From an uncultured Bacilli bacterium (GTDB lineage: Bacteria > Bacillota_I > Bacilli_A > RF39 > UBA660): a DNA stretch of 64,000 bases. Below the pieces are notes generated by a model. The model was not told the DNA's origin. It saw only the letters and a list, made by a program, of their open reading frames with translations, and made no database searches. Below are positions 1-15,048 of the stretch, piece after piece; position 1 is the stretch's first letter; each line of letters begins with the position of its first letter. The DNA lies in assembly GCA_934149325.1 (NCBI GenBank), contig CAKPEJ010000002.1, positions 10,194 to 74,193 of the forward strand. Reading direction: 5' to 3'. The position numbers and the translations under genes were made by a program.

Positions 1-813
1 ATTAATATCTTGATTATTATTTCCTGAATTAACTACTACATCATTATAATTTCCATTTAATTCAATACCATTATTTTCTGTTGTTATTTTATAAACACCT
101 GAATTTATGTCTGAAAAAGAATATGATCCATCATTTTCTGTATATGTTTGTGATTTGTTGATACATTCATTATTTTCTATCTTACATAAATTTAATAATA
201 CATCGCTTTCTGGCTTATTATTTTCAGAATTAATCACATTACCAGAAAGACTAGTTGTATTTACTTTTACAACTGTTGGAGTTGATGTAGTTTCTGTACT
301 TGTTTTTTCTTTAACTGTAACTATTGGTGCGAATTGATAATCATTTGGTGCGCCAATTACATTAAGTTTTGTCGAAATAGAATATTCTTTATTTGTTGTT
401 ACATTACTAACAGTTAATTTCAATGTCTTACCATTATTAATGATTTCACTTTCTATTCCTTCAACATCTAAATTTTTCCAAGTTGCATATTTTAAATCAT
501 TATCATTTAATGTTGCTTCTACTATTGCTGTTCTGCCATTGACTTTCTTCCCACTATCAAGAGTTAAAGAAAATTTTATTTTATAGGTTATAGTATCATA
601 ACCAGCCACAGTAACTAAAGTTTCATTTGTAGTATTTTCATTTTTCTTTTCAACATTTTTAGATACTACAGATACTTTAGTTGCATTGATTTTTCCATTG
701 TAACTTTTATTAATAACCTTGTTTGTTAGTAATACACCTAATATTATTATTAATGTAATTATACTCAATGAAATTTTTCTTAATTTCGTATCATTTTTAA
801 TTCTTTCCAACAT
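1..813 (-). CDS. Giant cell-surface protein paralog, N-terminal 271 codons (partial; continues past window start)
   Basis: Hand-translated reverse strand: ATG at 813 (SD AGGAGAAG upstream), no stop down to position 1. Product MLERIKNDTKLRKISLSIITLIIILGVLLTNK...AIVEATLNDNDLKYATW...DGSYSFSDINSG aligns along its whole length with the N-terminus of the 4715-aa protein (signal/TM anchor, AIVEATL, KYATW, GKTLKLT, NVTTN, DGSYSFSD motifs). Missing from the ORF track, presumably because it is open at the window edge. Confidence 0.75.
   Translation of the reverse strand, partial: MLERIKNDTKLRKISLSIITLIIILGVLLTNKVINKSYNGKINATKVSVVSKNVEKKNENTTNETLVTVAGYDTITYKIKFSLTLDSGKKVNGRTAIVEATLNDNDLKYATWKNLDVEGIESEIINNGKTLKLTVSNVTTNKEYSISTKLNVIGAPNDYQFAPIVTVKEKTSTETTSTPTVVKVNTTSLSGNVINSENNKPESDVLLNLCKIENNECINKSQTYTENDGSYSFSDINSGVYKITTENNGIELNGNYNDVVVNSGNNNQDIN

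Positions 814-15048: not shown

Follow-up and report, generated by a model that had tools for sequence, protein, structure and literature searches.

Two adjacent genes on the minus strand of a 64,000-nucleotide stretch of DNA from an uncultured human-gut Bacilli bacterium of the RF39 lineage (GenBank assembly GCA_934149325.1, contig CAKPEJ010000002.1, positions 10,194 to 74,193; hereafter the window) encode paralogous giant proteins that are probably adhesin-like cell-surface fibrils, bearing a variant sorting signal by which a sortase-type enzyme would link them to the cell wall. In the proposed pathway, each protein would be exported through its N-terminal hydrophobic signal and retained in the membrane by a C-terminal helix and basic tail. 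A sortase-type transpeptidase would cut between the T and G of a conserved motif and join the protein to peptidoglycan, while the N-terminal and lectin-like modules would project outward and take glycans or proteins of host or dietary origin as their ligands. The arrangement of the genes, the domain folds of their products and the conservation of the C-terminal motif are described below, together with the alternatives to this reading.

A tandem pair of paralogous giant genes

Gene 1 occupies positions 901–15048, stop codon included, and is read from an ATG at 15048 as a single open reading frame of 4715 codons for amino acids; all coordinates given for the two genes are window positions on the minus strand. 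The enclosing frame (901–15099) is the largest in the window. An identical 4715-residue protein is encoded on scaffold_38 of ENA ERZ28615863, a 169-kb sequence from a human-gut metagenome, and together with the reading from ATG 15048 this bears out the single uninterrupted gene proposed by an initial annotation of the sequence. The 90% cluster of the gene 1 protein has 14 members, with full-length alleles of 4713–4731 residues (n = 10). A ribosome-binding site, AGGGAG (15058–15063), lies 9 nt 5′ of the ATG. Farther upstream, promoter-like elements can be picked out by eye at 15076–15099, where a TTGACA (15099–15094) and a TATAAT (15081–15076) are spaced by just 12 nt and a candidate extended −10 element, TGtTATACT, falls at 15090–15082; these elements are missing from the output of a consensus promoter scan. 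A terminator-like hairpin with a U-run (15120–15156) spans the stop codon of uvrA and closes the upstream transcription unit. It has a 12-bp stem and a folding energy of −12.3 kcal/mol (z = −3.5), which none of 200 shuffled sequences equaled. Because uvrA has its own hairpin terminator, gene 1 is not co-transcribed with the uvr genes, the 92-nt spacing notwithstanding.

Gene 2 follows 87 nt beyond the stop codon of gene 1. Its first 271 codons lie in the window (1–813), and the frame is open through position 1. The start at ATG 813 (MLERIK...) is the one chosen by the gene caller on the source contig and is preceded, 9 nt 5′, by the ribosome-binding site AGGAG (823–827); another in-frame ATG lies at 819. 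Folding of the junction between the genes gives a second terminator-like hairpin followed by seven U residues, covering the final codons of gene 1 together with its stop codon (880–919). Its A/U-rich stem of 14–15 bp has an energy of −14.1 kcal/mol (z = −3.1), again unmatched in 200 shuffles. A consensus terminator scan did not list this hairpin because the stem has fewer than three G-C pairs. The initial annotation had placed a second gene about 90 nt downstream of the first and beyond a terminator hairpin, and both the gap and the hairpin are as it described. Each of the two genes appears to have its own transcription signals.

The N-termini of the two products are collinear and identical at 118 of 257 aligned residues (46%, E = 8e-58), sharing the blocks AIVEATL, KYATW, GKTLKLT and DGSYSFSD on which the paralogy had originally been proposed. 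The similarity extends along most of both proteins, as judged from the first 3304 residues of gene 2, and gene 2 shares the overall plan of gene 1. It carries seven Flg_new repeats, as counted with a hidden Markov model (HMM) trained on the gene 1 protein, and its orthologues match Laminin_G_3, a LamG-type lectin domain. The initial annotation had raised the possibility that the second copy was a short remnant ending just outside the window. This is not so on the contig beyond the window start, where the gene is called at 3673 residues, and orthologues of 4215–4218 residues occur in four other assemblies (from Hadza and other gut samples, and a Logan assembly of one sequencing run). All of these assemblies have the genes in the order uvrB, uvrA, gene 1, gene 2, and at least five independent assemblies from the gut carry the pair 3′ of uvrA. 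A single contig continues beyond gene 2; there the gene is followed by one for a holin-4-like membrane protein, by lgt and by one for a thioredoxin-reductase-like protein, and neither a third giant copy nor a sortase is found 3′ of gene 2 on that contig. For the downstream end of gene 2, a scan of JGI metagenomes with an exact 47-mer gave no match, and the downstream proteins of strain L008 were found solely on its 25-kb contig.

Domain architecture of the gene 1 protein

The gene 1 protein opens with an export signal or signal-anchor (residues 1–27; 14968–15048) in which a basic n-region, KNKKK, precedes about 17 hydrophobic residues, a layout kept in all homologues. Three β-sandwich domains with immunoglobulin (Ig) folds follow (residues 28–412; 13813–14967), resembling those of pilins and of MSCRAMMs (microbial surface components recognizing adhesive matrix molecules). 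An AlphaFold2 model of this region, built from an alignment of 21 homologues, has a predicted local distance difference test (pLDDT) score of 81.6. Its top Foldseek match is BcpA (E = 2e-11), and the pilin matches, which also include the sortase-dependent CppA, LrpA, EbpB, GBS80 and SpaD, span E values from 2e-11 to 1e-7. MSCRAMM-type adhesins (UafA, SdrD and antigen I/II) are matched as well. The middle domain of the three is prealbumin-like, of the SpaA/SdrD-B type, and reaches 25.1 bits with Pfam SpaA (PF17802; cut-off 23.1) over residues 196–270; a profile search of the PDB with the N-terminal module found NOMO and SdrD.

A long array of Listeria-Bacteroides (Flg_new) repeats comes next (residues 410–1670; 10039–13821). 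Family membership, as initially annotated, is clear, with PF09479 scoring 497 bits against a cut-off of 27 (E = 7.7e-153) as the sole Pfam family in a scan of the whole protein, and TIGR02543 scoring 78.5 bits against 20.95. The count is lower than the approximately 25 units first proposed: Pfam delimits 18 stretches, and an HMM trained on the gene 1 protein itself also finds 18 units over residues 410–1670. Two domains that appear Ig- or fn3-like, with matches below the Pfam threshold to DUF7743 (2.9e-4) and CHB_HEX_C_1 (0.043), link the array to the rest of the protein (residues ~1671–1879; 9412–10038).

Beyond them lie approximately 2,800 residues in which modules rich in asparagine, serine and threonine (N/S/T-rich) alternate with three jelly-roll modules that resemble carbohydrate-binding modules (CBMs) and lectins. 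The jelly-roll units were delimited with an internal repeat HMM at residues 2144–2313 (module 1; 8110–8619), and at residues 2903–3057 and 3065–3225 (modules 2 and 3; together 5374–6342). They belong to a repeat family of approximately 160 residues per unit, with 22 domain matches in nine relatives. Module 2 is modeled by AlphaFold2 as an all-β sandwich (pLDDT 88.9, predicted template-modeling score 0.86), and the fold of module 1 is taken from this model. Foldseek aligns module 2 with Cry toxins, the Eph ligand-binding domain, a hyaluronan-binding module, CBM4 and CBM61, and TNF-like lectins, all at E values near 5e-4 and template-modeling (TM) scores of 0.3–0.47. The three jelly-roll-like modules of the initial annotation are thus supported as predicted folds by the repeat family and the module 2 model, without a close relative of solved structure.

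Each of the six N/S/T-rich modules is opened by a cap motif, Y..LQ.AI...LDLNG, and most are closed by FYDG. The four later modules (residues ~3240–4564; 1357–5331), delimited from motif positions and composition, are possibly β-solenoids; FYDG closes the first three of them and does not follow the short last one. A conserved C-terminal domain, KNIxxYExDxG...LxxGxYKL...GxIKEN (residues 4565–4662; 1063–1356), adjoins the sorting signal. In an alignment, seven family members are 32–43% identical to gene 1 in this domain, which may be Cna-B-like in character, and the alignment, used as a profile, retrieved 20 further loci. About 60% of the length of the family has no Pfam model.

The C-terminal tail and anchoring of the proteins

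The last 35 residues of the gene 1 protein (4681–4715; 904–1008) form a tripartite, sorting-signal-like tail consisting of MIQTG (residues 4681–4685), QKIINYGK, IIISITAAIIVIFLV and KKRKVRI. The TG of the motif is 30–31 residues from the C-terminus, within the range of 17–45 residues that defines sortase substrates (PMC4155245). The N-terminal hydrophobic segment and the C-terminal transmembrane helix with its KKRKVRI tail had been recognized in the initial annotation, which also reported that LPXTG and SLH motifs were lacking and considered the mode of anchoring unusual. The literal absence holds: LPXTG does not occur in gene 1, where the position fits and the L and P are lacking, and Pfam scans of the whole protein and of its segments detect no SLH domains. 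The proposal of an unusual mode is not supported in that form, as the conserved MIQTG in a canonical tripartite layout had been overlooked.

Comparison across the family points to the same reading. Exhaustive profile searching from the shared N-terminus retrieved 899 proteins with E ≤ 0.001, and seven of the best matches are complete giants of 2732–4713 residues that share both ends with gene 1. For the present family, the closest relatives to bear a label are ‘Clostridium sp. CAG:433’ and ‘uncultured Tenericutes bacterium UMGS855’. The tails of the complete giants, two more from GTDB genomes and 18 from gut metagenomes all consist of a pentapeptide [NSMT][ILH][QR]TG (NIQTG, SLQTG, MIQTG, TIQTG, SIRTG, NIRTG or NHQTG), 7–8 further residues, approximately 15–20 hydrophobic residues and a K/R-rich end. 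The T and G are invariant in all nine distinct family tails examined, in a region that is otherwise 32–43% identical. More distant homologues, which share the prealbumin-like domain alone, have LPXTG or LAXTG at the equivalent place relative to the helix and tail. The LPXTG_anchor model TIGR01167 matches four of the nine tails from model position 4, that is from the TG onward, at 19.0, 16.2, 16.1 and 14.4 bits, three of them above the curated cut-off of 15.9 bits. PEP-CTERM and Firmicu-CTERM do not appear among the NCBIfam matches of the tails, and Loki-CTERM stays below threshold (E of 0.04 to 0.4). From its sequence, the C-terminus is most readily interpreted as a cell-wall sorting signal of variant form, NVQTG-type and LPXTG-like, rather than as a bare transmembrane anchor.

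The cell has a wall to which such proteins could be joined. The same contig encodes a class A penicillin-binding protein, a MurA-family enzyme, MreB, SpoIID, SpoIIR, SpoIIID and PcsB/FtsEX. A wall-less, Mollicutes-like host, considered on account of the ‘Tenericutes’ label of one relative, is ruled out by these peptidoglycan and sporulation genes. Two of the latter, spoIID and spoIIID, lie in the window (58372–59994 region) and spoIIR just past its end; the ‘Tenericutes’ label under which relatives were deposited misrepresents an organism that is walled and apparently forms spores.

The NVQTG pentapeptide from which the tail type takes its name is the nearest motif in the literature; it belongs to C. 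difficile CbpA (CD3145) and is nearly identical to NIQTG, SLQTG, MIQTG and SIRTG (motif from PMC4155245 and PMC5569036). CbpA also has an equivalent tripartite context and is a surface adhesin of a low-G+C gut Firmicute. The two systems are compared here by tail alone, and NVQTG-type tails constitute a motif class, not a curated family. CbpA differs in being a much smaller, MSCRAMM-like protein, the motif of which has been tested and is not cleaved in vitro by the single C. difficile sortase.

Several observations weigh against processing by a sortase and against an adhesin role. The motif has no proline, and the gene 1 tail reaches no NCBIfam sorting-signal model, its best match being Loki-CTERM at E = 0.42. 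No TLxTC-type sortase-like open reading frame and no Pfam Sortase match was found in the 64-kb window and approximately 30 kb of flank, and none by the same regular expression and Pfam within 10 kb downstream of about 20 related loci, a search that covers a small part of the genome. A conserved AXA or signal-peptidase site after the N-terminal hydrophobic segment is lacking in approximately 30 homologues, such that the segment may stay in place as a second anchor. Two groups found the NVQTG peptide of CbpA to be uncleaved by SrtB in vitro, and a third paper regards CD3145 as probably not a true sortase substrate (PMC4155245, PMC4371152, PMC5569036). Finally, the adhesin function and its ligands are read from fold resemblance alone, and the jelly-roll matches are weak.

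The best-surviving alternative, which we hold to be unlikely, is double membrane anchoring without processing. The N-terminal signal-anchor and a C-terminal stop-transfer segment would hold the ends of a 4,700-residue loop, or the protein would be tail-anchored only, and the QTG would have a structural role instead of being a cleavage site. The missing AXA site would fit such a topology, as would the absence of LPXTG, the failure to find a sortase gene in the DNA searched and the inertness of the NVQTG peptide toward C. difficile SrtB. However, a simple anchor hardly explains why T-G is kept without exception, and always equally far from the helix, in tails that have otherwise diverged, and several family tails match the LPXTG_anchor HMM. 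The N-terminal module is also of a kind that occurs in wall-linked pilins and MSCRAMMs, and the sortase search was limited to a small fraction of the genome.

It is also conceivable, and in our view doubtful, that the [NSMT]-[ILVH]-[QR]-T-G tail is a distinct class of sorting signal, common to the present giant adhesins and C. difficile CbpA and handled by an enzyme other than the characterized class A/B sortases, either a sortase of new specificity or an unrelated protease or transpeptidase. Such an enzyme would explain why SrtB fails on NVQTG in vitro despite conservation of the motif across distant lineages. As for the related notion of a pilus, the size of the proteins argues against a pilin subunit; no sortase is adjacent at the locus.

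Two further observations concern related genomes. The matches to the TLxTC expression were to non-sortase proteins only, among them a Cys-rich 226-residue protein of CAG:433-like genomes. This conserved protein of approximately 226 residues has an N-terminal transmembrane segment, is encoded directly 3′ of the family member (locus L002, 1804–2697; loci L009–L017) and is not sortase-like. In UMGS855-like genomes (loci L003, L019, L022 and L023, ~14.4–20.4 kb), a second giant gene lies approximately 4 kb 3′ of the family member. It encodes more than 1,900 residues before being cut by the locus end, with a signal peptide and Gly-rich, GGxGG-type repeats, and represents a different giant family.

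Strain variation, related systems and genomic context

Divergence among the alleles of gene 1 is concentrated in a hot spot at residues ~2400–2700 (6949–7851), in the first long N/S/T-rich module, where identity falls to 47–78% from mostly at least 95% elsewhere and at least three allele types occur in the ten full-length alleles. A comparable hot spot is found at residues ~2200–2500 of gene 2. Such a distribution is consistent with recombination or diversifying selection affecting a portion of the fibril that is exposed. The initial annotation had suggested looking for copy-number variation between strains, of which the ten gene 1 alleles give no sign; variation in repeat number in gene 1 is ruled out by their near-constant length (4713–4731 residues) and by the repeats themselves, the Flg_new copies being just 60–80% alike at the DNA level.

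The length of gene 2 is the other polymorphism of the locus, and it bears on whether both genes are functional. The 3673 residues called on the source contig, set against 4215–4218 in the four other assemblies, could mean that gene 2 of the present strain is truncated or decaying, a premature stop or frameshift having cost it ~545 C-terminal residues and the sorting signal and left gene 1 as the sole functional gene. We regard this as quite unlikely: residues 1–3304 are open and collinear with the 4218-residue orthologue at 87% identity and with no large gaps. In a modular family of this kind the deletion of one ~545-residue module is an equally likely cause, and relatives vary in length from 2732 to 4218 residues yet all retain the tail.

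The initial annotation had described the N/S/T-rich modules as β-helix-like. Their composition is as described (37–39% N+S+T). The fold receives no such confirmation from Pfam scans of segments and of module caps, where Beta_helix (PF13229, E = 0.0074), Pectate_lyase_5 (PF20585, E = 0.0011) and NosD all fall below the cut-offs, the best β-helix and lyase scores being 16.4 bits (cut-off 25.9) and 19.6 bits (cut-off 24.3). A profile search of the PDB gave no sequence match for these modules, and hydrophobic autocorrelation did not reveal a clear periodicity in them; a β-helix or solenoid fold is a plausible conjecture. That the proteins are mainly surface-bound enzymes (pectate-lyase-like or other polysaccharide-active β-helices with CBMs) and not adhesins is highly improbable: the weak Beta_helix, NosD and Pectate_lyase_5 matches and the CBM resemblance of the jelly-roll modules, including that to the hyaluronan-binding module and CBM4/CBM61, speak for it, but every β-helix or lyase-family match in the N/S/T-rich modules is below cut-off, the best of them, PF20585, is described by Pfam as an adhesive domain, these modules have no PDB sequence match, and Pfam and NCBIfam scans detect no catalytic family across the 4715 residues.

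Giant Ig-fold adhesins are common in Firmicutes, and the present proteins, read as wall-linked fibrils, have much in common with sortase-anchored adhesins (SdrD, UafA) and pilins (BcpA, SpaD, GBS80). Shared features are an N-terminal export signal, a repetitive stalk, Ig-type domains of CnaA, CnaB or prealbumin-like character, and a C-terminal motif followed by a hydrophobic helix and basic tail. In contrast to these systems, the present proteins have [NSMT][ILH][QR]TG in place of LPXTG, no sortase was found nearby, and ~2,800 residues of N/S/T-rich and jelly-roll sequence are added for which Pfam has no model; compared with the pilins, they are approximately ten times larger. The Listeria internalins InlA, InlH and InlB share the Flg_new or InlB B-repeat unit. 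They differ from the gene 1 protein, which lacks a leucine-rich repeat domain and reaches 247 and 187 bits against InlA and InlH family cut-offs of 1600 and 1050, the repeat region alone matching. Tandem clusters of Flg_new-containing LPxTG surface proteins are known from Bifidobacterium of the honeybee gut, and the likeness extends to tandem paralogous genes, Listeria-Bacteroides repeats, wall-anchor layout and diversification between strains (PMC4449606). The bifidobacterial proteins combine these repeats with RCC1 repeats and a true LPxTG, whereas the partners here are pilin-like, jelly-roll, LamG and N/S/T-rich modules and a variant motif (PMC4449606). New in the present case are the family, for which no name was found in the sources searched, the combination of modules and the conserved NVQTG-type tail.

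The window has a G+C content of ~25% throughout, and the minus strand carries nearly all of its genes. It shows a strong, uniform GC skew with nearly all genes co-oriented, and the origin region (dnaN, dnaA, rpmH, rnpA, yidC, jag, trmE, gidA, gidB, parB) lies ~10–20 kb past window position 64000. From this co-orientation, skew and origin position, the giant genes are therefore placed on the leading strand, roughly 65–90 kb from oriC.

Three other loci in the window were recorded. An agr-type quorum-sensing locus (53067–57037) contains agrB (53067–53684, plus strand), a 37-residue AgrD-like open reading frame (~53720–53833, plus strand), a histidine kinase (53865–55172, minus strand) and a response regulator (55150–55866, minus strand). 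A 303-residue protein with collagen-like Gly-X-Y repeats (Pfam Collagen; 30593–31504, minus strand) adjoins a glycosyltransferase gene and pcsB/ftsEX and is possibly a further component of the cell surface. A strain-variable patch at ~41500–45600 contains Bro-N and RhuM-like genes and small unannotated open reading frames and looks like a prophage or mobile-element remnant; the Bro-N gene is absent from a sister contig.

Uncultured gut Firmicutes meet host, diet and phages chiefly through giant surface proteins. With its localized hypervariable cassette and the differing lengths of gene 2, this locus is probably a target of diversifying selection, and that makes it useful for strain typing. 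The tail supplies independent, evolutionarily conserved examples of the NVQTG type, and whether NVQTG is a sortase signal in C. difficile CbpA is a matter of dispute. Should the motif be processed, prediction rules built on LPXTG or (S/P)PXTG would overlook one class of proteins anchored to the wall; should it not be, very large proteins would be held at the cell surface by their terminal helices alone.

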